A DNA stretch of 32,000 nucleotides from Moritella sp. JT01. Its GTDB lineage: Bacteria > Pseudomonadota > Gammaproteobacteria > Enterobacterales > Moritellaceae. Shown piece by piece: positions 1,130-19,242 of this stretch. The DNA is taken from assembly GCF_001574435.1 (NCBI RefSeq), contig NZ_LOCN01000024.1, positions 130,793 to 162,792 on the forward strand, given 5' to 3'. A model generated the notes under the pieces. The model was not told the DNA's origin. It made no database searches and saw only the letters and a list, made by a program, of their open reading frames with translations. Numbering within the stretch: position 1 is the stretch's first letter; every line of letters begins with the position of its first letter. The translations under genes and the position numbers were made by a program.

Positions 1130-1323
1130 TTATAACTCCTTAACAAGCAAGAACAGATGAAAATAATGCTCTTTTTAATGATGAAGTGAAATTTTTCACT
1201 TGTATTACTTTAACTTGTTTAGACGATGTTTTTCAACCTTTTTTCATACCTCTAGCCGATTGTTGATTAGACCTAAAGTTCATACCATTGATGTGTTAAT
1301 TTGATGAATTAAAAGGATTTTAC

Positions 1324-3921
1324 ATGTCAACGATGTCGTTAAAACACCTAGTGGATAAATTAAACCAAAGCGGGAAAAAGGCACTAGAAGGTGCTGCGGG
1401 ACTTTGTCATTCACGCAGTCAATTTACGGTTGAGATAGAACACTGGCTATTACAGCTGGTCGAAAACAAACAAGATGATATAGGGATAATCTGTCAGCTG
1501 CAGGGCATCGATGTACAAGTGCTTATCAATGAACTTAATTTATCATTAGAACGACAAAAAACCGGGAATAGCGCAGCGCCAAGCCTCTCTCCGCATATCA
1601 TTACCTTGTTAAGACAAGCTTGGTTAAATGCGACCATTGAGTTTGACGAACAGCAGATCCGTTCCGGTATTATTCTTTATACACTGCTTAGTGACGACAG
1701 TATTAATGCGATGTTGTCTCGTCATGTTCGCCAATTTGAACGATTATCAGCAGCCTTAATTCGTGATAATTGGTCTATCATCACCGAAAAATCGACAGAG
1801 CAAAACAGCCTTGTTGGTGTGTCTAATGCGGGCGTAGCAACAAACAGTAAAACACCGTCGTTAGACCAATTTACGGTTGATTTAACGCAAAAAGCCCGTA
1901 GCGGCAAGATGGACCCTATTTTAGGGCGTGACCCAGAAATAAGACAAATGGTCGATATTCTAACGCGTCGCCGTCAAAACAACCCAATATTAACCGGTGA
2001 TGCCGGTGTGGGTAAAACCGCGGTTGTTGAAGGGCTTGCGCAACGTATCGCAGCGAAAGATGTCCCAGAAAGTCTGCAGCATGTTCAATTACGTGAACTT
2101 GATCTTGCGCTTTTGCAAGCGGGTGCAGGGATGAAAGGTGAGTTTGAAAACCGCCTTAAAGCGGTATTAAATGAAGTAAAACAATCTGCAAACCCGATCA
2201 TCTTATTCATTGATGAAGCACATACCATGATTGGTGCTGGTGGCGCGGCAGGTCAAAATGACGCAGCAAATATCCTCAAACCTGCGCTAGCTCGTGGTGA
2301 GTTACGTACTATCGCTGCAACAACTTGGGCTGAATACAAAAAGTATTTCGAAAAAGATCCTGCATTAACGCGTCGTTTCCAAGTTGTTAAGATCGAAGAG
2401 CCTTCTGTTCCAACAGCTGTCACTATGTTACGTGGTCTTTTACCTGTCATGGAACAACATCATGATGTTGTTATTACTGCCGACGCCCTCCAAGCTGCCG
2501 TGACCTTATCTAAACGTTATATAAACGGCCGTCAATTACCGGACAAAGCAGTGGCCTTATTGGATACCGCTTGTGCTCGCGTTGCAATTAGCCAAGCGGC
2601 AACTCCGGGTTTAGTTGAAGATTTACAACGTCAGCAAGCGCAGCTTGAAGCTGAAATTAAACTGCTTGAGCGTGAACAGTTATCTGGCGATGATCACAGT
2701 GACACAATTAGCATGTTACAAACGAACCTTACTGGTATAAAAGATAATTTAGCGATTGAGAAACAGGCTTGGCAAGCGCAATCAGAATTAGTAAAAGCTA
2801 TTCAACAACAAATTGCAGATATTCATGAAAATGGCGCAGAAGAAGAAAAATATACTCGACTTAAAGCGTTAAAAGCACAATTACACCAAGCTAAAAATAC
2901 CATGGTCTACTGGCAGGTTGATGAACAAGTCATTTGTGAAGTCATTTCTGACTGGACAGGTATCCCATTAGGTAAAATGGCACAAGATGAACTGGAAACC
3001 GTGCTCAACCTAAGCGATGAGATGAAGTCACGTGTTATCGGTCAAGACCATGCGATTGATATGATTGCTAAAACAGTGCAAATCTCGCGTGCGCAACTCA
3101 GTGATGAAAGTAAACCCAATGGTATTTTCATGTTAACGGGTCCAAGTGGTGTCGGTAAAACTGAAACCGCGCTCACACTTGCCGAGCAGGTTTATGGCAG
3201 TGAAGAGAATATTATCACGATTAATATGTCTGAATATAAAGAAGAGCATAAAGTATCACTGCTTCTTGGTTCACCTCCCGGCTATGTCGGTTTTGGTGAG
3301 GGCGGCGTATTAACCGAAGCTGTTCGCCGTAATCCTTACAGTGTGGTGTTACTCGATGAAATGGATAAAGCAGCACCTGGCGTGCAAGATATTTTTTATC
3401 AAATCTTTGATAAAGGCTGTGTTAAGGATGGTGAAGGGCGAGATATAGATTTTAAAAATACCATCATTATCATGACATCCAATGTAGGTACTGACACGAT
3501 AACAAGCTTGTTTGCCGATCCAGACACTGCCCCTGAATTAGAGAGCTTGGCTGATTGTATTAAAGCAGATCTAACTGCGGTATTTAAACCCGCGTTCTTG
3601 GGACGTGCAAACATAATTCCGTTTGTGCCGTTAACGGATGACATGTTAAGTACGATTGCTCAATTACAAATAAATCGTTTGGCTGCGCGAATTCGTCGTA
3701 ATCACAATGCTGATTTTACAGTTGATAATGAAGTAATTACTCAAATTGTCAGTCGTTGTCATGACGTGGCATCAGGTGCCCGTACAATCCATAACTATCT
3801 ACAAAATACCTTGTTACCCGAAATATCAGTACAAGTATTGGAAGCAATGACTAAACAGGTTGAATTTAGTCAAATAAACGTTATTACGAATGAAGAAAAA
3901 TTCATTATCACGCTCATTTAG
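1324..3921 (+). CDS. clpV: Type VI secretion ATPase ClpV (TssH), Clp/Hsp100 AAA+ family
   Basis: 865 aa. The N-domain is ClpV-like ([22 protein letters not shown]) rather than ClpB-like. There are two Walker A motifs ([10 protein letters not shown] and GPSGVGKTE) and a coiled-coil middle region. AAGGA SD before the ATG. hcp, vgrG and PAAR follow directly. Confidence 0.92.
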
Positions 3922-4156
3922 AACGAAAAGTATGAGATAGAAAACCATTCTTTTTATAGGGTGAAAGCATACTTGGAAAACTTGTATTACAGAGTGGTAA
4001 TTTAGATAATGTAATCAGCTGTTGAAGCGCAGATTTGTTTATTTATTATAGTGTTAAGTAAACTAACTGGTAATTTGAAATATATTTTAGAGATGGTTTT
4101 ATTGATAAAACTATTGTAATGAAAAGCTTATTTAAGCAATTTAAAAGGATGATAAA

Positions 4157-4636
4157 ATGCAAGCAAATACGTATTTAAATTATGAAGGGATTGCTGGTGA
4201 ATCTACTGCTAAAGAATTCCCAGATTTAATCACAGTATTATCGTTAGACTTCGGTACAACTCGTGTATTAAGTTCTTATACTGGTACTGCGCAAGATCGT
4301 GAAGCAAGTTCTGCAAAGCTTAATGATGTAACGATTACAAAATTACAGGATAAAGCGTCACCTGAGCTATTTAAAGAATCGACAATTGGTAAAGGTAAAA
4401 GTGCAATCTTCCACATTACTAAGCAGGGTAAAGGCATCGAAGAGATCATGAAAATTGAACTTACAGATGCAATGATCAGCGGCTACCAAGTTTCTGTTCA
4501 AGGTGACCGTCCTTTAGAAACGATTACAATTAGTTATACAGAAATGATGATGACTGTAACGCCGACTGATGATCAGAACAATGTACAAGCACCACTTGTA
4601 TATGGTTACAGCGGTGTAACTGGCCAACAAATGTAA
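4157..4636 (+). CDS. hcp: Type VI secretion tube protein Hcp (TssD)
   Basis: 159 aa. The N-terminus YLNYEGIAGESTAKEFPDLITVLSLDFG matches the Hcp pattern (IKGES...I.V.S...G). Size and position between clpV and vgrG fit. AAGGA SD. Confidence 0.9.
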   Translation: MQANTYLNYEGIAGESTAKEFPDLITVLSLDFGTTRVLSSYTGTAQDREASSAKLNDVTITKLQDKASPELFKESTIGKGKSAIFHITKQGKGIEEIMKIELTDAMISGYQVSVQGDRPLETITISYTEMMMTVTPTDDQNNVQAPLVYGYSGVTGQQM

Positions 4637-4649
4637 GTTTGCTGGTTTC

Positions 4650-4682
4650 ACAGTTGGGTGACTTAAACAGTTGCCCAACTGT
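4650..4682 (+). promoter_or_regulatory. Intercistronic stem-loop between hcp and vgrG (possible partial terminator or RNA-stability element)
   Basis: ACAGTTGGG (4650-4658) is perfectly complementary to CCCAACTGT (4674-4682), with a 15-nt loop, followed by TTCGTT. It lies 14 nt after the hcp stop. Confidence 0.3.
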
Positions 4683-4712
4683 TTCGTTACACTTGTTCAG
4701 TTAGGAAATAAA

Positions 4713-6614
4713 ATGGCAGCGGCTACTCAACAACATTCAATGATGAAAATCACCACACCATTGGGTGGTGACGCCTTACATATTACGGCCGTATCAATGC
4801 AAGAAAGCATATCTGCTTTGTACGAAATTAATGCCTCGGTGTATACCACAAATAGTGAGCTGGATTACCAAGCGCTACTGGGTCAATCGGTAACCATTGA
4901 ACTTGCTGTTAAAGATTCTTCTGGCAACTACACAAGAAATTTTAATGGTCTTGTAACAAGTATCAGTTCTCAGGGGCAATCTTATGAAGCACTGAATAAT
5001 ACCAGTAAATATTACCGTTATACCTTAATTATTTCACCGCAGCTTTGGTTAGCAACTATGCGAAGTAATTGCCGTATCTTTCAAGACCTCTCCGTTATCG
5101 ATATTGCGTCATTAATATTTCCTGAGCATAATATTCAGTTTGTTAACAATGCAGGTACTACATTTAAGCCCTATGAATACTGCGTTCAGTATCATGAAAC
5201 TGATTATCAACTTTTGACTCGATTATTTGCTCAGGAAGGTATATATTTTTACTTTAAGCAAAGCAGTGGGTCTAATTCCGTTATATTAGCAAATTCAACG
5301 ACTTCACATGTGAACTGTGCCGAAAGTCCTTTGCTACAATCAGATGAAATTATTTCTCATGCTTACGTCTCCACTTGGTCGTCATTGGCCGCAGTTAAAC
5401 CCGGTAAGGTGAGCTTAAGAGCTATTAACTTTGAACAGCCCTTAATGAATATTGACGGTAGTTCAGTTAATGCTGAGTTTACAGGGCAAGATAATTTAGA
5501 ACATTTTGAATATGTTTCTGGGCATAAAAATTTAGCCGCATCAAATTCATTTTCAGCAACACACTTAGAACAATTACAATCAAACAAAGCTATTTTTAAA
5601 GCCAACTCAAATTATGTGACGATTGAAAGTGGTAAGGTGATTGCTTTTTCTAAGCACGCAACACAAAGCCTTGTGGGGCCTGAATTCCTTATTACACGCA
5701 ACCATTTTATGGCGAGTCAAGGCTCGCAGCTTGATGTTAATTCAAAAAATGGTATGGAGATCAATTCTAATTTTTGTTGTGTTGAAAATACGCCAAACTA
5801 TCAGCCGATTATAAATATAAATAAACCAATCATTCGTGGTGTGCAAACGGCCATTGTAACGGGGGCTGCGTCGGACGAGATATATGTTGATTCTTACGGA
5901 CGCATTAAAGTTAAATTTTATTGGGATAGGCTAGGTACATCAGACGAGAACAGCTCTTGTTGGATCCGAGTTTCTCAAAATTGGGCGGGTAAAAACTGGG
6001 GCGCATTCTTTTATCCCCGTGTAGGGCAAGAGGTATTAGTATCATTCTTAGATGGTGATGCTTCACAGCCTATTGTTATTGGTGCTATTTATAATGGCGA
6101 TCAAATGCCCGTGAATCCTTTACCGGCCAACAAAACTCAAAGTGGTATTCGGACTCACTCAACAACAACTAACGGTAATGCAAACTGTAACGAACTGATT
6201 TTCGAAGACAAAATCGGCAGTGAATTGTTAGGCTTGCGTGCCGAGAAGGATCATCAATTAGTTGTCGTTAATAATCAGACCGACACTGTAGGTAATGACC
6301 GAACAACAACGGTCACCAATAATGACACATTGACAGTGACCAATGATCAAACGCAAACCGTCAATAACGACCGTAATAGTCAGATCGCTAATAACGATAC
6401 GCTCGATGTTGGCAATATACTTAAACTTAAGGCTGCAACGGAGATTAAGCTTGAAGTGGGTGCGGCTAGCTTATTAATGAAAAGTGACGGAACGATAAAG
6501 CTTTCTGGCGTTAATATCGAAATATCAGGGACAAATGTCAAAGTTAAAGGCACTGCAACTAATATCGAAGGGGCAATGGTTGTCGTGAAAGGCTCTGTCG
6601 TTAAAATTAATTAA
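4713..6614 (+). CDS. vgrG: Type VI secretion spike protein VgrG (TssI), no C-terminal effector extension
   Basis: The track ORF opens at a TTG (4671). I prefer the ATG at 4713, which has an AGGAAA SD 4 nt upstream, giving 633 aa. gp27/gp5-like core: RGVQTAIVTG, YVDSYGRIKVKFYWDR, SCWIRVSQNWAGKNWGAFFYPRVGQEVLVSFLDGDASQPIVIGAIYNG. The C-terminus is a beta-helix repeat region (TVGNDRTTTVTNNDTLTVTNDQTQTV...). Confidence 0.9.
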   Translation: MAAATQQHSMMKITTPLGGDALHITAVSMQESISALYEINASVYTTNSELDYQALLGQSVTIELAVKDSSGNYTRNFNGLVTSISSQGQSYEALNNTSKYYRYTLIISPQLWLATMRSNCRIFQDLSVIDIASLIFPEHNIQFVNNAGTTFKPYEYCVQYHETDYQLLTRLFAQEGIYFYFKQSSGSNSVILANSTTSHVNCAESPLLQSDEIISHAYVSTWSSLAAVKPGKVSLRAINFEQPLMNIDGSSVNAEFTGQDNLEHFEYVSGHKNLAASNSFSATHLEQLQSNKAIFKANSNYVTIESGKVIAFSKHATQSLVGPEFLITRNHFMASQGSQLDVNSKNGMEINSNFCCVENTPNYQPIININKPIIRGVQTAIVTGAASDEIYVDSYGRIKVKFYWDRLGTSDENSSCWIRVSQNWAGKNWGAFFYPRVGQEVLVSFLDGDASQPIVIGAIYNGDQMPVNPLPANKTQSGIRTHSTTTNGNANCNELIFEDKIGSELLGLRAEKDHQLVVVNNQTDTVGNDRTTTVTNNDTLTVTNDQTQTVNNDRNSQIANNDTLDVGNILKLKAATEIKLEVGAASLLMKSDGTIKLSGVNIEISGTNVKVKGTATNIEGAMVVVKGSVVKIN

Positions 6615-6650
6615 ACTTATTTTATTATCTGGTTTTAGAAAAGGATTTTT

Positions 6651-6938
6651 ATGGGAATGCCAGCTGCAACAATGACGAGTTTTCATGTATGCCCTGCGTC
6701 AACTAGTCGTGTGCCTCATATCGGCGGTCCTGTGATCGTCGGTTCGCCTACTGTGCTGATTGGAGGGCTCCCTGCGGCAAGGTTGGGTGATAAAATGGTA
6801 TGTTGTGGACCACCAGACACGATTGTGAAGGGATCTGCGACGGTACTCATTAATGGTAAACCTGCTGCTCGAATGGGGGATGCCGCTGCACATGGTGGAA
6901 AAATTGTTGCAGGTGTACCAACCGTGTTAATAGGTTAG
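6651..6938 (+). CDS. PAAR-domain spike-tip protein (stand-alone, no toxin domain)
   Basis: 95 aa. Repeated PAAR-type motifs: GLPAARLGD, GKPAARMGD, and the PTVLIGG/PTVLIG ends. Sits immediately after vgrG with an AAGGA SD. Confidence 0.9.
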   Translation: MGMPAATMTSFHVCPASTSRVPHIGGPVIVGSPTVLIGGLPAARLGDKMVCCGPPDTIVKGSATVLINGKPAARMGDAAAHGGKIVAGVPTVLIG

Positions 6939-6946
6939 GGATTGAT

Positions 6947-8095
6947 ATGGATGTACAGTCTCTACTTTCGCTGATTGGCCAGGTTGAAACCTACTTTCAA
7001 CAGCGTGAACGTTGCTTTGACAATTGCTGGTCAACGCATTTACAACTCAAGCAACTTGACCAGCAAGCCGCAGGTTGGTTTTATTTATTAACGCAACAAC
7101 GTGATGCATTACCAACTTTAGATATAGATAAACCCACTTGGCTTGATTTATTATTAGCACAAACTGTCACCGAGTTAGTGGAACTCGTCAAACATCGCAC
7201 TGCGATTAATGGTAGCGATAAGGTTTGTCTGCAATGGTGGTCTCAACGTCATAATGGTGCTGCGTTAATTGCTGCGCTTATTACACTGGAAGCCACAGCA
7301 AAGCAATCATCAACACCGCAGAGTTTGTTAACACAAGAATTGTTATGTGTTATAGCCACTGCAACACCTGTCATTAGCGATCAATTCAATTTTCTTCATG
7401 TCGATAATATTAAGCCCTGTATTCATTTTATTAACCAACATTTGGGCAAAGCATCGCATATCTGGTCTAGTCACTTTTTAGACGCAGAAACGACAGAACC
7501 AAACAGTAAAAAGTTATTAGCCTTGAGCTTATGTCGAGGTACGTTTCCTGTGAACTTGCCTGTATTAAGCAGCGTGTTATTAGCAGACAAATCTTTATTG
7601 AAACAATATGTTGTTCAAGCCGATAGCCGTTTGGTGGGTGTGGTAATCAATGAATTGTCTGCCCATAACGACAATGCCAAATTTGTATTATCACTCATGG
7701 CATTTAGCGGATATAAGCAATTCATTCCTTGGTTGATCCAAATGTTAACCGCTGGTTTTTTAAGTCACGCTGCTTTTGCTGCTTTGCATACCTTGTTAGG
7801 GGCTGACTTTGAGGCGCAACTACCTGCTAAATTATATGGCGAGTACGAACCTGAATCTAAAGTAGACTTGCTGGTGGCGTTGAAACAGTCATTGAGTGAT
7901 TGGTGGATATTACACCGCGATGAATTCCCAGAGCGTATATTGGCGGGTAAACCAATTAATGAATCAAATATAGACTTTATCTGGCAGCAAGGAAACATTT
8001 CGCAATGCGAGGTTGCTGCTTATCACTATTGGTGCATGAAGGCTGAACATCGTTTAACGGATGCGCGTGGGTTTAATATCGGAGGTATGCTATGA
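6947..8095 (+). CDS. T6SS-associated hypothetical protein, predicted all-helical (HEAT/ARM-like repeat; possibly TIGR02270-like)
   Basis: 382 aa with no signal peptide or TM segment. Leu/Ala-rich helical composition with HEAT-like stretches (SHAAFAALHTLLGADF). It starts 8 nt after the PAAR stop and overlaps the next gene by 4 nt (ATGA). The family assignment is from memory of similar PAAR-adjacent genes and is unverified. Confidence 0.55.
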   Translation: MDVQSLLSLIGQVETYFQQRERCFDNCWSTHLQLKQLDQQAAGWFYLLTQQRDALPTLDIDKPTWLDLLLAQTVTELVELVKHRTAINGSDKVCLQWWSQRHNGAALIAALITLEATAKQSSTPQSLLTQELLCVIATATPVISDQFNFLHVDNIKPCIHFINQHLGKASHIWSSHFLDAETTEPNSKKLLALSLCRGTFPVNLPVLSSVLLADKSLLKQYVVQADSRLVGVVINELSAHNDNAKFVLSLMAFSGYKQFIPWLIQMLTAGFLSHAAFAALHTLLGADFEAQLPAKLYGEYEPESKVDLLVALKQSLSDWWILHRDEFPERILAGKPINESNIDFIWQQGNISQCEVAAYHYWCMKAEHRLTDARGFNIGGML

Positions 8096-9045
8096 AATTT
8101 ACGGTAGTCGATTATGCCGGTGAGTTTGGTTGTCATCCTAATTCAATCGATTCTGTTTTGACTGGGCTAACACCGGATATAGCCTTAACAGAGCTTGCTG
8201 CATACGCGCAATTTAAGCCCGTTAAACAAGTCGCGTTTACTCAATCAGAATTGGCTGATAACCGTATTGACCGATGGCAAATATTGATTAACGCTGCGTT
8301 AGCAAACTCGAATTTAATTGAATTAAGTCAAGATGCCCCGGTATTGATGGTGCTGCCTTATGTCGATGCTAAATTTAGCCAGATGCAGAATCACTTGATT
8401 GATTCTGTGATTGATATTTTACCTGCGTGGACAAGGCACCCTAATAGTCATTATTACTTGCTGGGAAGTGCGGGGTTTTATCAGGCATTGCGCCAAGCGG
8501 ACGTATTACTCAGTGCAGGTATGGAACAGGTGGTGATTGGTGCAGTAGACAGTTGGGCGACAGAGCAAGGCTTGTTAAAGTTTATTAGCAAGTTCAGTGA
8601 TTATGGCTCTGTTGTATTACCTGCTTCAGAAGGGGCTGTCTTTATTGTGTTGTCTCGGCTGTCACAGGGTATAGAGGTGTTAGGTTGTGGTATGGATGTG
8701 GTGATTGATCGACATGCTCCAAGTGGCCTAATTGCAATTATTGCGGATCTTGTCGCTAAACAAACTCAACCTGTACAGTATTTGTCGCTGTGTCATTCCG
8801 GAGATGAAAGCTTAGATCAAGTCGGGCACAATACACTCTGTGCTATTTCAGGGCTTTACGATGCCAATACTCAGTTTTTAACGCCACAAATTACGCAAGG
8901 CGATATTGGCGCTTGCTATAGCTTATTACATTTTTTACTCAGTTATCATCATTATAAACAGCATATCTGGCAGGGAACTAGCCTACAAATTGATACGTCG
9001 TCGTTGCCTTATGTTGGCGCTGCGATTTATCGCTGGTGTGACTGA
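8092..9045 (+). CDS. T6SS-associated thiolase-fold / beta-ketoacyl-synthase-like protein with a degenerate active site
   Basis: 317 aa. By-eye alignment to the KAS pattern. LLGSAGFYQALRQADVLLSAGMEQVVIGAVDS resembles ..ACASG..Ai..A...I..G.advvlaGG.eS, with Ser at the nucleophile Cys position. ASEGAVFIVLSRL resembles GEGAgvlvLe.l. QGDIGACYSLL resembles GH.lGAAG, with Asp at the His position. Translationally coupled to the upstream gene. Confidence 0.5.
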   Translation: MKFTVVDYAGEFGCHPNSIDSVLTGLTPDIALTELAAYAQFKPVKQVAFTQSELADNRIDRWQILINAALANSNLIELSQDAPVLMVLPYVDAKFSQMQNHLIDSVIDILPAWTRHPNSHYYLLGSAGFYQALRQADVLLSAGMEQVVIGAVDSWATEQGLLKFISKFSDYGSVVLPASEGAVFIVLSRLSQGIEVLGCGMDVVIDRHAPSGLIAIIADLVAKQTQPVQYLSLCHSGDESLDQVGHNTLCAISGLYDANTQFLTPQITQGDIGACYSLLHFLLSYHHYKQHIWQGTSLQIDTSSLPYVGAAIYRWCD

Positions 9046-9070
9046 GTATTTATCGCTGGTGTAACAGATT
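9025..9070 (+). repeat. Imperfect 23-bp tandem duplication spanning the stop codon of the 8092..9045 gene
   Basis: Copy 1 is ATTTATCGCTGGTGTGACTGAGT (9025-9047). Copy 2 is ATTTATCGCTGGTGTAACAGATT (9048-9070). They are identical at 20 of 23 positions. Confidence 0.85.
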
Positions 9071-9197
9071 AATTACCGGCAGTAAGACACCTTATTATTG
9101 AAAAGATTAAATGGACTTATTTTCATGAATGGAATCACGATGCAAAGCCCTCTATCGATTGATAGGAGGGTTAACTATGCGGTATGCAATTAAATAA

Positions 9198-9296
9198 CTG
9201 AAGTTGAGTGTATCTATTGGCTTAATTTTGATTTTTGGAAAACAAAAACGCTGCCTTCATGACAGAATTGCTGGTACTAAAGTAGTAAATATATAG
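9198..9296 (+). pseudogene. C-terminal remnant of an RDD-family membrane protein gene
   Basis: The frame reads LKLSVSIGLILIFGKQKRCLHDRIAGTKVVNI*, directly preceded by an in-frame TAA. The ending ..LHDR.AGT.VV is the typical C-terminus of RDD-family proteins. No N-terminal part or start codon is present. Confidence 0.4.
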
Positions 9297-9437
9297 TAAT
9301 TTCAGTGTTTTTTAATAAGTATGCTTATAGTTTATTAAAGTTGTAACTTAATTGTCACTATTCCTAATTAGTATTTTAAAACATTGGTATTTAACGGATT
9401 GATACCGACTAATATACTTTTACAAAGGAATGTTTAG

Positions 9438-12086
9438 ATGAAGAAAACAATACTATATTTGTCTGCGAGTGCTATTTTCTCGTTGACGGCACATGCTGAT
9501 ATTTTAATTTCTGAATATATTGAAGGGAGTTCGTTTAATAAAGCCATTGAAATAGCGAATACAGGTAATGAACTTGTTACGTTAATCGGCTATGAATTAG
9601 CAAAGTCTGCGAACGGCAATAATGAATGGGGTAACCGTTTGCCGTTAGATGGCATCGCTATTGGCGCGGGCGATGTGTTTGTGTTGGCTCATAGCGATGC
9701 TAACGCCGATATTTTGTCTAATGCGGACATGACTGATACTAACGTGATTAGCTTTAATGGTGATGATCCTATCGCGTTATTATTGAACGGTGAGGTACAC
9801 GATATCATCGGTGTAATGGGCGATCAAAACTTTGGTAAAGACGTTACCTTAGTAAGACAAAGTCGCATTGCAGCTACTATATACAAGGAATCAGATTGGC
9901 TTGTTAAGGCAAAGAATAATAGCGATGGCTTAGGTTCGTTAGACTCATCTGGTGGCGGTTCTGATAATGGCGGGGAACCTGATACTATTATCGAATCGAC
10001 AATTATGGCACTTCAGGGAAATGGTTGGTCCTCTCCCTATACAGACCCTACAACTGAAAAATACATCTCAGACGAAACGTTCCTAATTGAAGGTATTGTC
10101 ACGGCCATTCAAGTTAATGCTTTAGGTAATGATTTACCACAAGGGTTCTTTATTCAAGATGAACTGGGCGATAATGATGTGACAACATCTGATGGTATTT
10201 ATGTCTCAGGTTTTATAACGGGTCTATCTATCGGAGATAAGGTTGCGGTTACTGGTAAAGTCAAAGAGGATTACGGCTGGACTAAGGTACAAGCAACAAA
10301 TGTAGACGTGATTGGTAATGGCACGATACCTGTAACAAATGTAAGGGCAGCAAGTGACGATGGTGATTTTGATTTTACATTAGAAAGACATGAAGGCATG
10401 TTCGTTAATATTGACCAACAAGCAGATATGTATGTTGCACGTACTTATGGCTTTGACTATGGCCCATTTCGTAACAACATGGTGATAGCCAAGTCTGGCC
10501 TTAACCTGCACCCCAATCAATTGAATATTCCCGCTTCTGCAGGTGCAAACTCGCAACGTGATGATAACGAAGATAGACGCATTATCGTGGAAACCATGAT
10601 TAAAGCGCCCAACGGTGCCCCTCTATGGTATCCAACATTCGGTCAAGATGATGGAACGGGTACCACAAACGACTATATACGTAATGGTGACTTAGTTAAC
10701 GGGTTAGAAGGTGTGCTAGGCTATTCTTACGGTGATTTTAGACTTTATATTACTAACCAAGCTGACGAATTTACTTTTATTCATGCGAACCCTCGATTAT
10801 CTCGTCCTGATGTTACAGGCGAGGGACTACGCATCGCCACTTTCAATGTTTTAAACTACTTTAATTCTCCTTTTGACGGAGCTGCGAACCCCACTGGGAC
10901 GAATCGTGGCGCTACGACTTATGCCGAATTTGAATTACAAGGCGATAAGATCGCGGCTGCTATTTTGGCTTTAGATGCAGATATTATTGGTTTAATGGAA
11001 ATCGAAAATAATGGTTTCGGTGATAGTTCTGCAGTCGCTTATTTGGTTGATAAAGTGAATTCATTATTACCAGACGTTGAGCAATATGCATTTGTCACAA
11101 GCCCTGATAGTGCGGGTTTTATTGGTAGTGATGCCATTGCTAATCAAGTGATTTACAAACCTTCGATGGTGACGCTTGATACTTACCGAATCATTAAGAT
11201 GCCTGAGCAACATGCAGGTCAAACGGGTAAAGAAAATGGTGACAACTATCAACGCGATGCGATAACGCCAACGTTTAAGGTTAATGACTCAGAAGAGTTG
11301 GTCACTGTCTCTGTTAATCATTTCAAATCTAAGGGGTCTACGTGTTGGGAAGATGTTGCTATTCAGAATGGCGAAGATGTTGGCTTACAAGGTTCTTGTG
11401 AGCACTTACGTGTTTCAGCGGCTCAACATTTGGGTAATGAAATGGCGTTAATTGCGGGTAATAAGCTGATCATTGGTGATCTTAATGCTTATGGGCAAGA
11501 AGACCCGCTACTTGTGTTAACAACCATGCCCGAAAACCACAGCGTGATGCCTGCACGTATGACATACATAGGTGACGAACCAATGGCGGGAAGTAATCCA
11601 AACGCTATCTCTGATTCATTTGGGTTTGTTAATGTGATCAGTGAACAGCATCCTGCCGCGTACAGTTATATTTATAACGACACTGTCGGTACACTCGATT
11701 ATATTTTAGTAGACAGTGAAACTGCATCAAAAGTGGTCGATGCAAATGTGTGGCATATCAATGCATCAGAATCAAAGTTGTTTGAGTATTCGTCAAAATA
11801 TACTGCAGACTTAGCTAAGTACCCTGATTTATTTAGATCGTCAGATCATGAACCCGCTATTGTTATTTTGGATGTATTAGGCGATGCTGACCAACCTGAC
11901 CAACCTGACCAACCTGACCAACCTGACCAACCAACGCCACCGTCTGGTACTGATGACACAACAAGTAACGATGATGACGAAGAAGAATGGTATGGCGGCT
12001 CTACTGGCTTATTATCACTTGGTTTCTTAACTGGTTTTGCTTTGTTTCGACGCTTCGGTCAACGATATATTAAGATGAACAGATAA
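9438..12086 (+). CDS. Extracellular endonuclease, ExeM/NucH-like (lamin-tail domain + endonuclease/exonuclease/phosphatase domain) with a GlyGly-CTERM sorting signal
   Basis: 882 aa. Signal peptide MKKTILYLSASAIFSLTAHA. LTD-like N-terminus (ILISEYIEGSSFNKAIEIANTG). EEP-type core (LRIATFNVLNYF, IIGLMEIENN, VNHFKSKG, GDLNAY, SSDHEP). The C-terminus YGGSTGLLSLGFLTGFALFRRFGQR has a GG motif, a TM helix and a basic tail. Confidence 0.85.
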   Translation: MKKTILYLSASAIFSLTAHADILISEYIEGSSFNKAIEIANTGNELVTLIGYELAKSANGNNEWGNRLPLDGIAIGAGDVFVLAHSDANADILSNADMTDTNVISFNGDDPIALLLNGEVHDIIGVMGDQNFGKDVTLVRQSRIAATIYKESDWLVKAKNNSDGLGSLDSSGGGSDNGGEPDTIIESTIMALQGNGWSSPYTDPTTEKYISDETFLIEGIVTAIQVNALGNDLPQGFFIQDELGDNDVTTSDGIYVSGFITGLSIGDKVAVTGKVKEDYGWTKVQATNVDVIGNGTIPVTNVRAASDDGDFDFTLERHEGMFVNIDQQADMYVARTYGFDYGPFRNNMVIAKSGLNLHPNQLNIPASAGANSQRDDNEDRRIIVETMIKAPNGAPLWYPTFGQDDGTGTTNDYIRNGDLVNGLEGVLGYSYGDFRLYITNQADEFTFIHANPRLSRPDVTGEGLRIATFNVLNYFNSPFDGAANPTGTNRGATTYAEFELQGDKIAAAILALDADIIGLMEIENNGFGDSSAVAYLVDKVNSLLPDVEQYAFVTSPDSAGFIGSDAIANQVIYKPSMVTLDTYRIIKMPEQHAGQTGKENGDNYQRDAITPTFKVNDSEELVTVSVNHFKSKGSTCWEDVAIQNGEDVGLQGSCEHLRVSAAQHLGNEMALIAGNKLIIGDLNAYGQEDPLLVLTTMPENHSVMPARMTYIGDEPMAGSNPNAISDSFGFVNVISEQHPAAYSYIYNDTVGTLDYILVDSETASKVVDANVWHINASESKLFEYSSKYTADLAKYPDLFRSSDHEPAIVILDVLGDADQPDQPDQPDQPDQPTPPSGTDDTTSNDDDEEEWYGGSTGLLSLGFLTGFALFRRFGQRYIKMNR
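11889..11933 (+). repeat. 9-bp tandem repeat x5 (GACCAACCT) encoding (DQP)5 in the nuclease linker
   Basis: Four perfect GACCAACCT units plus GACCAACCA, read directly from the sequence. In frame, between the EEP domain and the acidic/GlyGly-CTERM tail. Confidence 0.95.
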
Positions 12087-12094
12087 TCAAAGAC

Positions 12095-12137
12095 GAGGTT
12101 ATACCTGTTGAATCATTGGGTATAACCTCATTATTTT
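12095..12137 (+). terminator. Rho-independent terminator after the nuclease gene
   Basis: GAGGTTATACC (12095-12105) pairs perfectly with GGTATAACCTC (12119-12129). The loop is 13 nt and ATTATTTT follows. Confidence 0.7.
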
Positions 12138-12336
12138 GATCTGTATTTACCCATTCACAGGTAAGCGACATGTCGATGGCTCCACTACCGTTTTTGCAGG
12201 GAAATATAGGGTATTAAGTATTAAAAAGTAAGATTAAATGACATTACCGCAAGGTTTGATCGATTTCACTAACTTAATAGGGCATAAATACGCTAAAATA
12301 GTCGGCTATTATCTTATTTCTGAGCTTTATATATTA

Positions 12337-13611
12337 ATGACAACTGTCACAGCACCAGCAAACTTTACCGAACTTGGCCTTATTTCACCTTTGTTAGCGC
12401 GATTAACTGAGCTGGAATACCAGCAGCCAACGCCTATTCAAGCACAAGCTATCCCAAGTGTATTAGCGGGACGTGACTTAATTGCAGGGGCAAATACCGG
12501 TTCGGGTAAAACAGCCGCTTTTGCATTACCTATGCTGCAGCACTTACATATAGAAAAGCAATCGGGTAGTACAAGCAGTAAAGGTAACTATGTTACAGGA
12601 CTGATTTTGGTACCTACCCGTGAACTCGCTAAGCAAGTTGCTGACAGCATTAAATCTTATGCAGTGCATTTTAACGGCGCGATTAAAACGGTTGCTGTTT
12701 TTGGTGGTGTATCAGTGAATACGCAAATGCTCGCATTACGCGGCGGCACTGATATTTTAGTTGCAACACCTGGTCGATTACTCGATTTGATTTCAAGTAA
12801 TGCTATTAAGCTAGATATGGTTAAAACCTTAGTGCTAGATGAAGCCGATCGTATGTTAAGTTTAGGCTTTACAGAGGAGTTATCTTCACTGTTAGCTTTG
12901 TTGCCAAAGAAAAAGCAAATTTTATTATTTTCAGCGACCTTCCCTGAAAAAGTACAGACTTTAACGCAAACTTTGCTTAACGACCCAATTGAAATTCAAT
13001 TGCAAAGTGCGGATGCAAGTACCTTAGTTCAGCGTGTTTTTACTGTTAACCAAGGTGAAAAAACAGCCGTTCTAGCGCATTTGATCAATGAAAATCAATG
13101 GCGACAAGTGCTTATTTTCGTTAATGCTAAACACAGCTGTAATCACTTAGCAGACAAACTTGCTAAGCGTGGCATTACATCACAAGTGTTTCATGGCGAT
13201 AAAGCGCAAGGCGCTCGTATTCGTACGCTTGACGGATTTAAATCTGGCGAAATTCAAGTGCTGATTGCAACTGATATCGCAGCCCGTGGTTTAGATATCG
13301 AAAAACTACCAGTGGTGATCAACTTTGACTTACCAAGAAGTCCATCTGACTACATGCACCGTATTGGTCGAAGTGGCCGTGCTGGTGAAGTGGGCTTAGC
13401 ATTATCGCTTATCGACCATGAAGATTATCATCATTTCAGCGTCATCGAAAAGAAGAACAAGATCCGACTCGAGCGTGAACAAGTAGCGGGTTTTGAAGTA
13501 GATGAAACTATCGAAGCATATATACCGATGGCTCCACCTGAAGGCAGTGGTAAGAAAAAACGTAAAAATACAGCACCAGTAAATGCAGATATCTGGTTGA
13601 GAAATAATTAA
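12337..13611 (+). CDS. rhlE: DEAD-box ATP-dependent RNA helicase, RhlE-like
   Basis: Q motif FTELGL...PTPIQAQAIP, Walker A ANTGSGKTAAF, then PTRELA, DEAD (VLDEADRM), SAT, ARGLD and HRIGRSGRAG, with a basic C-tail. The track starts at ATG 12238. I prefer ATG 12337 (MTTVTAPANFTELGL, 424 aa) because it puts the Q motif at the usual distance from the N-terminus. The start remains uncertain. Confidence 0.85.
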   Translation: MTTVTAPANFTELGLISPLLARLTELEYQQPTPIQAQAIPSVLAGRDLIAGANTGSGKTAAFALPMLQHLHIEKQSGSTSSKGNYVTGLILVPTRELAKQVADSIKSYAVHFNGAIKTVAVFGGVSVNTQMLALRGGTDILVATPGRLLDLISSNAIKLDMVKTLVLDEADRMLSLGFTEELSSLLALLPKKKQILLFSATFPEKVQTLTQTLLNDPIEIQLQSADASTLVQRVFTVNQGEKTAVLAHLINENQWRQVLIFVNAKHSCNHLADKLAKRGITSQVFHGDKAQGARIRTLDGFKSGEIQVLIATDIAARGLDIEKLPVVINFDLPRSPSDYMHRIGRSGRAGEVGLALSLIDHEDYHHFSVIEKKNKIRLEREQVAGFEVDETIEAYIPMAPPEGSGKKKRKNTAPVNADIWLRNN

Positions 13612-13889
13612 CCTACGCAGAAGCTAAATCTAGTATATAAGAGTAGGTGTCGCGCAACGGCATCTACTTTACAACACTTCAACGGCCTTTCAGATTCACT
13701 TGGTTTTTCCACTGGTTCTATCGTGTTAAATGTTTCAGTAATTCCCATGGAAAACTTCAAGCAGTAATATTTAACTTACATCATACTTAGACCATCATGC
13801 ATATTGTGTTAACTATGGTGTTCGCTTTAAGATTTACGTATGTTGTATTTCAGCAGGAATGTTCGGGTGCTAGAGTTGGTTTAAATAAG

Positions 13890-13915
13890 ATATACCCCAA
13901 CGAGTTGGGGTATAT
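13890..13915 (-). terminator. Rho-independent terminator of the minus-strand five-gene operon
   Basis: ATATACCCCAA (13890-13900) pairs with TTGGGGTATAT (13905-13915) around a CGAG loop. On the minus strand CTTATTTAAA follows. It lies 28 nt past the MotB-like stop. Confidence 0.65.
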
Positions 13916-13942
13916 GACTTATGAGCGTTAATTCAGAAGGTT

Positions 13943-14608
13943 TTAAGGCCTACGAATGTAAATGACAGCGCGACGGTTTGCTGCTCTAGCTGCGTGTACA
14001 TCCTTAGTTGTACTTAATTCGACTTTGGGTCTTGAGTCAGCATAAGCAACTGCTTTCAGTTCCTTTTTTTCAACACCTTGTTGCTCAAGTCGTTTAACAA
14101 TTACAACGGCTCGAGCGCTCGATAACTCCCAGTTTGATGGGTAGAGTAGGGTATTGATTGGAATGTCGTCAGTATGACCTTCAATTTCAATCAGCTGGTT
14201 TTTGACATTTGAGTTATTAATGACGTCAGCAATTTGATCAATCACAGGTAACATCTGTGATTTGATCTCCGCATCACCAGAGCCATAAAGGGCCTTATTA
14301 GAAAACTCAATCTTGATACCTTTTTTATCAATACTGACATCGACTAATTCAGTCATGTTATTTTTTTCAAGTACACTCGTAATGTCTTTTTTCAATTCAC
14401 TAAAAGGCATAGAGGTCTTTGTGGTGCTGGTTATCGATGTGATACCTTGCTCGAGCTCTTGTAAACGACCTTCATTTACTTCTGATACACTGACCAGAAT
14501 AACAAAGAATGCGAGCAATAACGTGATCGCATCACTGTATGTGACTAACCAACCATTATCGTCTTGATCGTTTAATTGCGAGGTAGACGGAGGTCTTTTT
14601 AATCTCAT
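13943..14608 (-). CDS. MotB/OmpA-family stator subunit (peptidoglycan-anchored ion-channel partner)
   Basis: 221 aa. A single TM helix carries the conserved channel Asp (GWLVTYSDAITLLLAFFVIL, compare MotB TYADLMTLL). C-terminal OmpA-like domain (IEIEGHTDDIP, SNWELSSARA, NRRAVIYI). The start overlaps the MotA-like stop (ATGA). Confidence 0.85.
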   Translation of the reverse strand: MRLKRPPSTSQLNDQDDNGWLVTYSDAITLLLAFFVILVSVSEVNEGRLQELEQGITSITSTTKTSMPFSELKKDITSVLEKNNMTELVDVSIDKKGIKIEFSNKALYGSGDAEIKSQMLPVIDQIADVINNSNVKNQLIEIEGHTDDIPINTLLYPSNWELSSARAVVIVKRLEQQGVEKKELKAVAYADSRPKVELSTTKDVHAARAANRRAVIYIRRP

Positions 14609-15396
14609 TTACCTAACTCCGTCATTTTATGTTTGGGCGCTAGGTAACAGTTTAATCTGTCTTGAATATACAAATTATCTTTATTTTCTGTTATCAACTC
14701 AAAACCAGCTGTTATAATTTGACGCTCGAAGAAAATGCGGTGCTGTCTTCTTGCGATGCGAATTGCAGATGGCTTAAAGAGTAGCTGTGCTAACAATGTA
14801 CCGTACAATGTCGTTAATAGAGCAATGGCAAGGCCTTTGCCTAATTCAGACAAATCACCACTCATATTATCAAGCATGATAATTAAGCCAATTAAAGTAC
14901 CAACCATACCAAAACTAGGGGCATATATTGAAAGTGTATTAATGACATTTACGTGTTCATTTCTACGTTGAAAATCACTTTCATTCGTGTCGTCAAGCAT
15001 ACTAGAAAGAACTTTCGATTTATAACCTGTACCCAATAACTCCATTGCATTGATAATGAAATCATCCTTTTTTTCTTTCTCAGTCAAACTATTTTCTAAC
15101 GCTGTAATACCTTGCTTTTTATATATATCATTCCATTCGACAATACGATTAACAAGTTGCTTTAATTGTTTGTGTTGGTTCTTTTCGTCAAGCAGATTAA
15201 CCATCATTTCGGTAAATGCGGCCCAAATCAAACGAAACGAGTAACTGATTAAGGTGGCACCAAAAGTTCCGCCAAGCACGATAAGTAAACTGAATAGGCT
15301 TACAAATATCAGGTAATTATCAGTGCTTTTAAAAATTGCGTAAACGAATAAACCGACTGCACCTAATATGCCTACGAAAGTACTAATTGAAATCAT
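14605..15396 (-). CDS. MotA/PomA-family stator subunit (MotA/TolQ/ExbB proton-channel family)
   Basis: 263 aa with four TM segments and a large cytoplasmic loop between TM2 and TM3. Conserved prolines are in MotA-like context (YAPSFGMVGTLIGL and LLTTLYGTLLAQLLFKP). Confidence 0.85.
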   Translation of the reverse strand: MISISTFVGILGAVGLFVYAIFKSTDNYLIFVSLFSLLIVLGGTFGATLISYSFRLIWAAFTEMMVNLLDEKNQHKQLKQLVNRIVEWNDIYKKQGITALENSLTEKEKKDDFIINAMELLGTGYKSKVLSSMLDDTNESDFQRRNEHVNVINTLSIYAPSFGMVGTLIGLIIMLDNMSGDLSELGKGLAIALLTTLYGTLLAQLLFKPSAIRIARRQHRIFFERQIITAGFELITENKDNLYIQDRLNCYLAPKHKMTELGK

Positions 15397-15399
15397 TTA

Positions 15400-17220: not shown

Positions 17221-17222
17221 CC

Positions 17223-17786
17223 TTATTTATCACCCATTTTAGTTAATGCGTTCTGAACATCTTCGTATGATGGATCAAGTTCTAATGCTTTATTCCATGC
17301 GGCTCTTGCATTGGCATAGTTTTTCATTCTGTAATTCACGCTACCTTTAAGTGCGTGAGTTTGTGCAAGACTAGGCGCTGCTTTAATCGCATCTTCGACT
17401 TTAACAAGAGCCTCTGGGTAATCTTTATCTACAGCAAGTTGTTGAGCCGCAGATAATAAGCGTAATGCCTTACCTATATCTTCTGATGCTGGTTCTTCTT
17501 CATCTAATATGTCTTCGAACAGCTCGAGGTCGTCTTGATTGTTGATAAGTTCTGCTGCATTTATTTCCTCATCGTTTTCGATCTCGAATATAATATCGCT
17601 ACCAAGTACGTTAAATGCGACTTTTGATTCGTAGTAAGTTCCCTTATGTCGAAGGGATAATACGCCTAGTTCTAATGGGTTACCTGCTGCATCTGTAATT
17701 GCTTGTACATGATTATCATGATTATCTTTTTTAGCACTACATGCGGTAAGGGTGATAAGCATGCATAAAGTAATTATCTGTTTCAT
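17223..17786 (-). CDS. TPR-repeat lipoprotein
   Basis: 187 aa. Lipobox LTLTAC, with the Cys at residue 16. Acidic linker (DILDEEEPASED). C-terminal TPR-like repeats (YPEALVKVEDAIKAAPSLAQTHALKGSVNYRMKNYANARAAWNKALELDPSY). Confidence 0.75.
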   Translation of the reverse strand: MKQIITLCMLITLTACSAKKDNHDNHVQAITDAAGNPLELGVLSLRHKGTYYESKVAFNVLGSDIIFEIENDEEINAAELINNQDDLELFEDILDEEEPASEDIGKALRLLSAAQQLAVDKDYPEALVKVEDAIKAAPSLAQTHALKGSVNYRMKNYANARAAWNKALELDPSYEDVQNALTKMGDK

Positions 17787-17795
17787 ATTCTGTCC

Positions 17796-18920: not shown

Positions 18921-19242
18921 GGAATGCCTTTTTTATATTTTAATAAGTATATTAATGTATTAGTGTATCTATTTTCAGATTTTTAAACTGTAAGTAATAT
19001 GTAAGCTGACCGTAATGGAGTGTAAATAATCAGGAGAGGGGGCTGTAAATTACACCTGCCTAGGAAATTCAATCATATTAAACTTATTGATTAATTCAGG
19101 CATAAGGCCGATCAAGGTGATACATAGCATTGGCTAATATGAATCGTGCTTTATACCAATTTTTCAATTGAGGTATCTCCTTTAAACGTGTTGAAAGTGG
19201 TATTATTCTGCAATTCATTTACTAATTATTGAAGGGTGTTTA

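Follow-up and report, generated by a model that had tools for sequence, protein, structure and literature searches.

Gene content of the locus

We analyzed a 32,000-nucleotide (nt) stretch of DNA from Moritella sp. JT01 (contig NZ_LOCN01000024.1, positions 130,793 to 162,792 of the forward strand; hereafter the window), concentrating on two adjacent open reading frames (ORFs), ORF-A and ORF-B, that close a type VI secretion system (T6SS) block in the order clpV-hcp-vgrG-PAAR-A-B. All of these genes lie on the plus strand. The block opens with clpV/tssH (1324–3921), an 865-amino-acid (aa) ORF whose homologues at related loci carry AAA/ClpB Pfam families. It is followed by hcp (4157–4636), which encodes the T6SS tube protein (PF05638 at 1.3e-30), and by vgrG (4713–6614), with Phage_GPD, Phage_base_V and Gp5_trimer_C domains and a TIGR03361 match of 510 bits. 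The mechanically called vgrG frame begins at TTG 4671 and spans 647 aa; since its homologues are all called at 633 aa, matching ATG 4713, the latter is probably the true start. After a gap of 36 nt comes the PAAR gene (6651–6938), which encodes a minimal canonical spike-tip protein.

An initial annotation, made from the letters of the window, had described a minimal PAAR of 95 aa, a VgrG lacking an effector extension, and coupled genes for proteins of 382 and 317 aa, and our analysis agrees on each point. The PAAR protein matched PF05488 only (6.2e-26), with no DUF4150 match listed in Pfam, and the VgrG domains finish at residue 599 of 647. ORF-A (6947–8095) encodes 382 aa and ORF-B (8092–9045) encodes 317 aa, and the stop of the first overlaps the start of the second in an ATGA read directly from the sequence (8092–8095). 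A spacer of 392 bp then separates ORF-B from an ExeM-type nuclease gene. We found no separate short DUF6484 gene after vgrG; Pfam gave only a sub-threshold DUF6484 signal inside the VgrG OB domain.

Neither protein looks exported or toxic. Their highest 19-residue Kyte–Doolittle windows reach 1.41 and 1.38, with none above 1.6, and neither has a signal-like N-terminus, so the earlier statement that both lack signal peptides and transmembrane helices holds. Searches of Pfam and NCBIfam found no toxin domain in ORF-A or ORF-B, and in Pfam neither matched the DUF4123 (Tap/Tec), DUF1795 (Eag) or DUF2169 adaptor families. As had been reported, no small immunity-like ORF follows the pair in the window, as judged from the ORF list and tblastn.

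The nearest database proteins to both come from Moritella, with those of Moritella sp. 36 being 94–95% identical, and word-indexed homologue searches with ORF-A, ORF-B or the ORF-B alignment returned Moritella sequences only. The window is collinear with the Moritella sp. 36 genome from 1230 to 19005 at 95% DNA identity, and homology to the other Moritella loci likewise starts at ~1230, about 90 bp upstream of clpV.

ORF-B resembles a ketosynthase without the nucleophilic Cys

ORF-B had no Pfam match at E ≤ 1 but showed a recurrent remote similarity to NF004798/PRK06147 of NCBIfam, a family named "3-oxoacyl-ACP synthase". The window protein matched at 2.9e-5 and 23.5 bits, against a family cut-off of 342 bits. 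All 18 Moritella members matched the same family (best 4.2e-7), with no second family recurring, and Psychromonas homologues reached values as low as 3.9e-8. A multi-genus consensus matched at 1.9e-12 and 47.1 bits, collinear over positions 59–206 of 349.

This family is of interest because PRK06147 was proposed from gene context as a fourth class of T6SS adaptor, and many clusters carry it without any other adaptor (Liu et al. 2020, PMC7714669). Its member PA0098, from the Pseudomonas aeruginosa vgrG1b-tse7 cluster, has since been named TvpD and predicted to be a PAAR co-chaperone (Monlezun, Earl & Coulthurst 2026, PMC13373197). The initial annotation had named PA0097/PA0098 as a similar pair with no assigned function. 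The thiolase-like half of this parallel stands, as PA0098 is a PRK06147 protein, but the description of PA0097 as HEAT-like was wrong, since that protein belongs to DUF2169 (Sachar et al. 2025, PMC11883445), and in view of the 2020 adaptor proposal and the 2026 naming the lack of an assigned function is out of date.

Structure prediction points in the same direction. The AlphaFold2 model of ORF-B was poor (mean predicted local distance difference test score, pLDDT, of 46.6, from a shallow alignment of Moritella sequences only) and had an alternating order of strands and helices. Foldseek gave 115 matches in the PDB at E ≤ 1e-3, the best at about 4e-6 with template modeling (TM) scores of 0.3–0.39, and the top 50 were all FabH, FabF/FabB, type II polyketide ketosynthase or thiolase-like proteins. 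Profile searches against PDB sequences returned nothing useful. Taken qualitatively, these matches support a predicted thiolase- or ketosynthase-like fold for ORF-B.

Within this fold, ORF-B lacks the nucleophilic Cys. The segment SAGFYQALRQAD aligned with the Escherichia coli FabH helix CAGFTYALSVAD, which places S126 at the position of C112, in an alignment that is not significant (hhalign, E 0.21); PASEGAVFIVL similarly aligned non-significantly with the FabF strand LGDGAGMLVL. Together with the Foldseek matches and the PRK06147 match in 18/18 members, this upholds the original reading of a thiolase layout with Ser at the Cys position (LLGSAGF). The same annotation had placed an Asp at a catalytic His position in the motif QGDIGA. 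The motif is present, but the assignment does not hold, as the register of the C-terminal half is not fixed (hhalign E 0.29–0.81 against FabH and FabF): D271 could pair with FabH N274, or Q266 with FabF H340, and neither of these non-significant registers gives a His or Asn at the catalytic positions.

The residues in question also vary between genera. S126 is invariant in the 18 Moritella sequences, but most Psychromonas and Pseudoalteromonas-type relatives have R in its column, followed by S, T or A, and the Thalassomonas motif is RAA, so that the nucleophile column across the wider family holds S, R or A. H235 alternates with Y among relatives. D271 is E in Alteromonadales relatives, keeping an acidic residue across that family, but is T in a TvpD-like protein of Vibrio. 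We considered whether ORF-B might be an active thiolase-fold enzyme that uses Ser126 as an acyltransferase or hydrolase to modify PAAR or cargo. Invariance of S126 within Moritella and the conserved acidic D/E271 would be expected of such an enzyme, but substitution of the supposed active-site residues across genera makes activity very improbable, and instead argues for ORF-B as a structural rather than a catalytic protein.

The Vibrio protein also links ORF-B to TvpD by position. In a Vibrio aquimaris chromid locus found by tblastn with the consensus, the order is VgrG, a 161-aa ORF with weak DUF6484 similarity, a 440-aa ORF, a DUF2169 protein (7.6e-67), a 344-aa protein, and a PpkA-like kinase. 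By its gene order this appears to match the class II Tvp layout reported from V. parahaemolyticus, in which TvpA (DUF2169) and TvpD occur with a DUF6484 protein, TvpC (PMC13373197). The 344-aa protein matched NF004798 weakly (7.5e-6), but over positions 10–308 of 349. It was also matched by the ORF-B family profile (1.8e-8, in a small database) and by hhalign (89% probability, E 2.3e-6, 215 columns). ORF-B is therefore probably related to proteins of the TvpD slot, with NF004798 modeling that group narrowly.

ORF-A is a helical protein with remote similarity to TIGR02270

ORF-A had been predicted to be all-helical, and its AlphaFold2 model is consistent with this, with about 22 helices in an alpha-solenoid-like arrangement (pLDDT 63.9, again from a shallow Moritella-only alignment). 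Foldseek found no significant PDB match, the best non-significant ones being ARM/HEAT proteins. In sequence searches, ORF-A matched no Pfam or NCBIfam family, with only a chance-level hit to DUF5952 (E 0.19; Pfam, E ≤ 1).

The suggestion to compare ORF-A with TIGR02270 was productive, as its relatives gave weak but collinear support. The window protein itself did not match this model, which has a cut-off of 206.8 bits, but 9 of 23 members of the Moritella family did so weakly (best 7e-4), and the family consensus matched at 0.005 and 15.9 bits, with residues 220–351 falling in order on positions 239–386 of 410. An exhaustive profile search of 1.84 billion representatives recovered 25 distant relatives (E 9e-18 to 2e-4), each about 350 aa long, aligned chiefly over the C-terminal 150 residues and sharing the motif (A/M)xSGYxxF(I/V)P(F/W)L. 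The named ones are "hypothetical proteins" of Pseudoalteromonas and Shewanella. One distant member, P0060, matched TIGR02270 at 3.4e-10 and 39.5 bits, also under the cut-off; a tblastn search of plasmids with P0060 found nothing. Homology between the ORF-A family and a DUF2169 protein was not detected (hhalign E 0.18–0.68). We interpret ORF-A as a putative remote TIGR02270-like helical protein, a weak but real similarity, and not a DUF2169 protein.

The two similarities have a precedent in fusion proteins: among the extra domains fused to PRK06147, TIGR02270 occurs most often (PMC7714669). Here the association seen in those fusions takes the form of two coupled genes. Relatives of ORF-A align, in the same order, with the C-terminal two-thirds of the TIGR02270 model (410 positions), but no function is known for that family that could be carried over to ORF-A. 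We found no mention of TIGR02270 in the searchable literature beyond that study.

The order of PAAR, ORF-A and ORF-B is conserved

We compared the window with 26 related loci, comprising nine Moritella configurations, six from Psychromonas, one from Thalassomonas, two from Pseudoalteromonas, and eight metagenomic loci. The order PAAR-A-B was kept in 26/26, across at least four genera, with PAAR directly upstream of the ORF-A homologue each time. The initial annotation had offered an uncharacterized T6SS accessory, adaptor or effector as possibilities and suggested looking for co-occurrence with T6SS genes; this synteny supports a conserved T6SS-linked accessory, and the evidence below favors an adaptor over an effector.

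In Moritella, the whole clpV-hcp-vgrG-PAAR-A-B block ends at differing chromosomal junctions, with ExeM, MatE, YqiJ, fatty-acid hydroxylase or ornithine cyclodeaminase-like genes beyond it. A genome scan with a Psychromonas-type ORF-A alignment located the six Psychromonas loci and the Thalassomonas locus, and homologues of PAAR, ORF-A and ORF-B were found in order in all seven with hidden Markov models built from the window proteins. Two RefSeq-annotated Pseudoalteromonas chromids read VgrG ... PAAR, hypothetical protein (340 aa), hypothetical protein (287 aa), RHS protein, and immunity gene, and hhalign shows homology between the proteins in the A position and the ORF-A family (97%, E 1e-10). 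The triad was also present in the eight metagenomic loci.

Coupling of the pair was similarly retained. An (A/G)TGA overlap of ORF-A and ORF-B was kept in 18 of 19 tabulated loci across genera, and two metagenomic loci (L028 and L031) also have it. In one Moritella metagenome scaffold (L022), ORF-A is split by a run of N at about 6450–6565 and its gene is called as 133 aa. We rejected a pseudogene here, as the run of N has duplicated flanks and represents an assembly gap.

Other genes can lie between vgrG and PAAR in relatives. Psychromonas, Thalassomonas and Pseudoalteromonas loci (L011–L014, L017 and L025) have a second cargo slot there, which in L013 holds a 1272-aa VasX_N protein and in L025 a Mbeg1-like protein with two ankyrin-repeat genes. 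A conserved ORF of 117–118 aa occupies the same interval in Pseudoalteromonas Bsw20308 (L026, 7163–7519) and in metagenomic loci L028–L034 (about 8293–8647); it has no significant Pfam match and is absent from the window.

Toxin genes follow ORF-B in many relatives

In 24 of the 26 loci the contig continues past ORF-B, making them informative about what lies downstream. A polymorphic toxin gene and a small ORF were found directly 3' of ORF-B in 15 of these 24, usually 0–17 nt away. The toxin was a PAAR-less Rhs protein in 12 of the 15 and a non-Rhs protein of 662–738 aa in the three others, all from Moritella. The remaining nine loci, including the window, keep ORF-A and ORF-B without adjacent cargo.

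Among the Psychromonas and Thalassomonas loci, four of seven have an Rhs gene of 1364–1524 aa that starts 7–8 nt after ORF-B and is followed by an ORF of 130–158 aa. These Rhs proteins contain DUF6531, RHS repeats and the RHS core, lack PAAR, and end in variable C-termini, with a RES toxin domain in L013. In Pseudoalteromonas, the immunity genes adjacent to Rhs are annotated as SMI1/KNR4 or PoNe immunity. All six metagenomic loci that reach far enough have an Rhs gene of 1484–1592 aa with a small ORF; these Rhs proteins are conserved over residues 1 to ~1320, and the remainder varies.

The cargo-bearing Moritella configurations are L001, L008–L010 and L022. Three cargo genes (L001 11002–12990, L008 11096–13267, and L022 8064–10280) encode proteins that share their first ~450 aa at 60–83% identity and then have unrelated C-termini of ~210–290 aa, and each is followed by its own ORF of ~180 aa. 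By this layout the three proteins appear to have polymorphic-toxin architecture. No Pfam family was found for them, and they may represent an undescribed family of T6SS toxins. An N-terminal domain common to Moritella cargo and Rhs cargo was not supported (hhalign E 0.42). The best-supported reading of these gene orders is that ORF-A and ORF-B would serve Rhs cargo in four lineages and a putative new toxin family in Moritella.

These neighbors change how the pair itself should be viewed. The initial annotation held that ORF-A and ORF-B fill the effector and immunity position, but that position is the next one downstream, and in the window it appears to have been emptied by deletion. We also considered whether ORF-A, ORF-B, or both are secreted, either as an effector and its immunity protein or as co-effectors riding with PAAR. 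Both genes adjoin PAAR, neither matches the DUF4123, DUF1795 or DUF2169 adaptor families, and binary effector modules with co-secreted partners are known (PMC8728615). Against secretion, the search for a conventional toxin domain in Pfam and NCBIfam found none, the two sequences are conserved rather than polymorphic, the genes are coupled and similar in size with no small immunity-like partner, and true polymorphic toxin and immunity pairs lie immediately downstream in relatives. We consider secretion of either protein improbable.

The spacer downstream of ORF-B retains the start of a cargo gene

The 392-bp spacer after ORF-B holds a feature that the initial annotation missed, namely the leader and first eight codons of a cargo gene. 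In DNA alignments with L022 and L008, positions 9046–9200 (plus strand) correspond to a cargo-gene leader and gene remnant, and homology to cargo-bearing relatives stops at a junction near 9201. The window spacer is nearly identical to the spacer between ORF-B and cargo in L022 up to ...AAACAACTG, after which the two diverge. It contains a Shine–Dalgarno sequence, taggagggttaactATG, with a GGAGG ribosome-binding site. The match to L022 spans the codons ATG CGG TAT GCA ATT AAA CAA CTG, the first eight of the cargo gene, and then similarity stops.

In the window itself, the stub reads ATG CGG TAT GCA ATT AAA TAA (9177–9197, plus strand), encoding MRYAIK*; codon 7 has become a stop through a C-to-T change. 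The CAA codon is intact in Moritella sp. 36, where the stub frame forms a 39-codon ORF that continues into unrelated sequence. The stub corresponds to the N-termini of the Moritella cargo proteins, which begin MRYAIKQLSEL (L022), MRYALKQLGEL (L008) and MRYEIKEISEL (L001). No cargo or immunity remnant beyond the stub was found by tblastn in the window or in cargo-less Moritella loci. Because the leader and first eight codons are kept and homology then breaks, a cargo toxin and immunity pair appears once to have lain 3' of ORF-B and to have been deleted in this lineage.

A 15-bp direct repeat, ATTTATCGCTGGTGT, lies at 9025–9039 and 9048–9062, flanking the ORF-B stop codon (TGA, 9043–9045). It looks as though 23 bp of the ORF-B 3' end had been duplicated in tandem. 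Moritella sp. 36 (L020) and L022 share the repeat, which L008 lacks.

Selection and recombination in the module

Ratios of nonsynonymous to synonymous substitution (dN/dS, Nei–Gojobori method) were low for both genes, at 0.08–0.13 for ORF-A and 0.08–0.19 for ORF-B, compared with 0.06–0.10 for VgrG and 0.04–0.13 for PAAR. Low values extended to lineages without cargo. The window and Moritella sp. 36, both cargo-less, gave 0.10 for ORF-A and 0.17 for ORF-B at a dS of about 0.2, and the cargo-less L002 and L005 gave 0.13 and 0.19. Family alignments of ORF-A and ORF-B showed no variable C-terminus. The low ratios, cargo-less lineages included, suggest that ORF-A and ORF-B are maintained.

This pattern bears on whether the pair is merely a non-functional leftover in this strain, its purpose lost with the deletion and its decay still to come. 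Such a state would fit the cargo stub with its nonsense mutation and the variability of the clpV-to-B block on both flanks. It fits poorly with two full-length ORFs under constraint both here and in Moritella sp. 36, with ratios that are equally low between other cargo-less lineages, and with an intact ATGA coupling, and we judge it hardly more plausible than secretion.

Constraint in the absence of cargo would fit a pair that acts primarily as a spike-assembly factor, one that would stabilize the small PAAR, help it settle onto VgrG, or occupy the baseplate cavity, and that would be needed for firing regardless of cargo. PAAR is the invariant upstream neighbor in 26/26 loci, while cargo is variable or absent, and ORF-A and ORF-B remain intact under purifying selection in nine cargo-less loci (dN/dS 0.08–0.19). 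On the other hand, tight packing with downstream cargo (0–17 nt in Rhs loci) points to a cargo link, the ORF-B 3' end is co-inherited with the cargo leader, and canonical PF05488 PAARs generally bind VgrG without helpers. A precedent for an assembly role comes from Serratia, where TvpAB, TvpB and TvpC are reported to be essential for VgrG1-Paar1 assembly, and small PAAR proteins have been suggested to need accessory proteins that fill the baseplate cavity (PMC13373197). We regard a primary role in assembly as unlikely, though clearly more credible than secretion or decay, and note that assembly and cargo-adaptor roles are not mutually exclusive.

Recombination also appears to have shaped the module. 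L002 and L005 are 100% identical at PAAR, but their sliding identity has dropped to 67% by the 3' end of ORF-B, placing recombination breakpoints inside the module. Additionally, the ORF-B 3' end and spacer of the window are far closer to those of the cargo-bearing L022 than its ORF-A is. This suggests that the end of ORF-B could act as a recombination anchor for cargo exchange.

A putative adaptor pair for PAAR-tip cargo

The explanation that we favor, with a probability of roughly 0.6, is that ORF-A and ORF-B form a conserved adaptor or chaperone pair for cargo of the PAAR tip, rather than being toxins, and that the cargo gene has been deleted in this strain. Several lines of evidence lead us to this explanation. 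PAAR-A-B synteny is conserved, cargo lies 3' of ORF-B in relatives, and the window retains a cargo leader and stub. ORF-B is a remote PRK06147 homologue and ORF-A resembles TIGR02270, the domain fused to PRK06147. The overlap of the two genes is conserved, neither product has a toxin domain, signal peptide or transmembrane helix, and the nucleophile of ORF-B is not conserved. Finally, dN/dS is near that of VgrG and PAAR, unlike that of a diversifying toxin.

As we envisage it, the two proteins would assemble into a T6SS adaptor/chaperone complex devoted to the PAAR tip, ORF-A as a proposed adaptor or chaperone subunit and ORF-B as a proposed co-chaperone subunit, with translational coupling providing a fixed ratio between them. 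Together they would bind the PAAR-less toxin encoded immediately downstream, by its conserved N-terminal region, as well as the small canonical PAAR, and would hold these partners until they are placed on the VgrG trimer. The pair would thus be analogous to TvpA-TvpD, with a TIGR02270-like helical protein in place of DUF2169.

Several points weigh against this explanation. We infer the contacts between ORF-A and ORF-B, the contacts of either with PAAR and with cargo, and the order of assembly. Both monomer models have low confidence (pLDDT 46.6 for ORF-B and 63.9 for ORF-A), with Foldseek TM below 0.4 for ORF-B, and the links to PRK06147 and TIGR02270 fall far under the family cut-offs (47 versus 342 bits and 16–40 versus 207 bits). 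The role of TvpD itself rests on AlphaFold models and gene context (PMC13373197). Since an N-terminal domain common to Moritella and Rhs cargo was not supported, how one pair could serve both is unexplained. Finally, a purely cargo-specific adaptor should decay in the nine cargo-less loci, and it has not. Retention after cargo loss fits either a cargo-independent assembly role, as for Serratia Tvp, or cargo encoded elsewhere in the genome.

A more ambitious proposal, which we hold only tentatively and think less likely to be right than wrong, is that PAAR-A-B represents a fourth, DUF2169-independent class of Tvp-like spike-tip complex built on a canonical PF05488 PAAR. In such a complex, a TIGR02270-like alpha-solenoid would replace TvpA beside a TvpD-like pseudo-ketosynthase, tethering PAAR-less Rhs cargo non-covalently while also being needed for VgrG-PAAR assembly and firing without cargo. 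The latter role would explain the survival of ORF-A and ORF-B after cargo deletion.

Comparison with known accessory systems

ORF-B resembles TvpD/PA0098 in belonging to the thiolase superfamily at a size of about 320–350 aa, in having PAAR and effector genes of T6SS loci as neighbors, and in being a predicted non-secreted PAAR co-chaperone or adaptor. In the Tvp system, TvpD and TvpA have been modeled with AlphaFold as a groove that shields the DUF4150-type PAAR domain of Tse7 (PMC13373197). The differences are considerable. The ORF-B family reaches 23–47 bits against the 342-bit cut-off, and its partner is a helical TIGR02270-like protein rather than DUF2169. The Moritella PAAR is a canonical PF05488 protein encoded upstream of the pair, whereas that of the TvpD system is DUF4150-type, toxin-fused and downstream. 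The ORF-B module has no DUF6484 TvpC gene, and its cargo, either a PAAR-less Rhs protein or another toxin, is encoded separately. The window accordingly has none of the three marks of a class II Tvp system, namely a DUF2169 TvpA, a DUF4150-type PAAR and a separate DUF6484 TvpC.

ORF-A occupies the slot held by the DUF2169 PAAR chaperones TvpA, Tap2 and PA0097 (PMC11883445), directly upstream of the TvpD-like gene, and is similarly presumed to shield PAAR, but has no detectable homology to a DUF2169 protein. By sequence and gene order, the module is a variant of the recently described Tvp/TvpD kind and not categorically new.

Two further systems resemble the pair in arrangement. Genes for EagR/DUF1795 chaperones lie just upstream of Rhs toxins, as ORF-A and ORF-B do. 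The targets of EagR/DUF1795 chaperones are transmembrane helices in prePAAR-Rhs proteins, which come with a PAAR of their own, whereas the Rhs proteins downstream of ORF-B lack PAAR, and neither ORF-A nor ORF-B has a DUF1795 match. TecT and co-TecT of Burkinshaw and colleagues (2018) reportedly form a chaperone and co-chaperone pair that loads TseT with a separate PAAR. In this arrangement, two accessory proteins and a stand-alone PAAR load a separate effector, as we propose for ORF-A and ORF-B, although the two pairs are not known to be related in sequence.

How T6SS toxins without a PAAR or VgrG domain of their own attach to the spike is only partly understood, and PRK06147/TvpD has so far been placed, by modeling, only in DUF2169/DUF4150 systems. 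In the A-B loci of several marine genera, a TvpD-like protein instead accompanies an ordinary PAAR and a partner of another kind, helical and unannotated, with Rhs genes downstream; these loci could thus provide a second, independent context for TvpD-like function. Both genes are annotated as "hypothetical protein" and could serve as a marker pair for finding cargo toxins, such as the uncharacterized Moritella family, whose C-terminal domains match no Pfam family. Naturally cargo-less strains could allow an assembly role to be separated from a loading role. The window itself offers a more modest result, an apparently orphaned loading module beside a deletion scar.

Flanking regions

Downstream of the spacer, the gene at 9438–12086 encodes an ExeM/NucH-family extracellular nuclease with LTD and EEP domains, a signal peptide and a weak GlyGly-CTERM (rhombosortase) signal, which we assign to the chromosomal flank. 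We considered this nuclease as possible T6SS cargo and rejected it, given its signal peptide and sorting signal, its match to the ExeM/NucH family above cut-off, and the presence of unrelated genes in its place at other Moritella loci.

Upstream of the clpV leader, positions 1–1229 had no homology to any other Moritella locus, including Moritella sp. 36. A minus-strand reading frame is open across 1–330 and runs past the left edge of the window, and tssE/F/G genes do not precede clpV here. The slot just upstream of clpV is variable in Moritella. A VasX_N toxin gene with TsiV2 immunity occupies it in both L002 and L005; L001 has a periplasmic-binding-protein/HTH gene there, L008 has tssG immediately next to clpV, and Moritella sp. 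36 (L020) has a divergent gene for a 2826-aa DUF6443 protein.

Further downstream, a motB/motA-like pair and then a gene for a 606-aa protein lie on the minus strand at 13943–17220. The Moritella sp. 36 homologue of the latter contains FliG_M and FliG_C domains, and the protein is unusually long for one that is FliG-like, with an N-terminal segment resembling a signal or transmembrane sequence.

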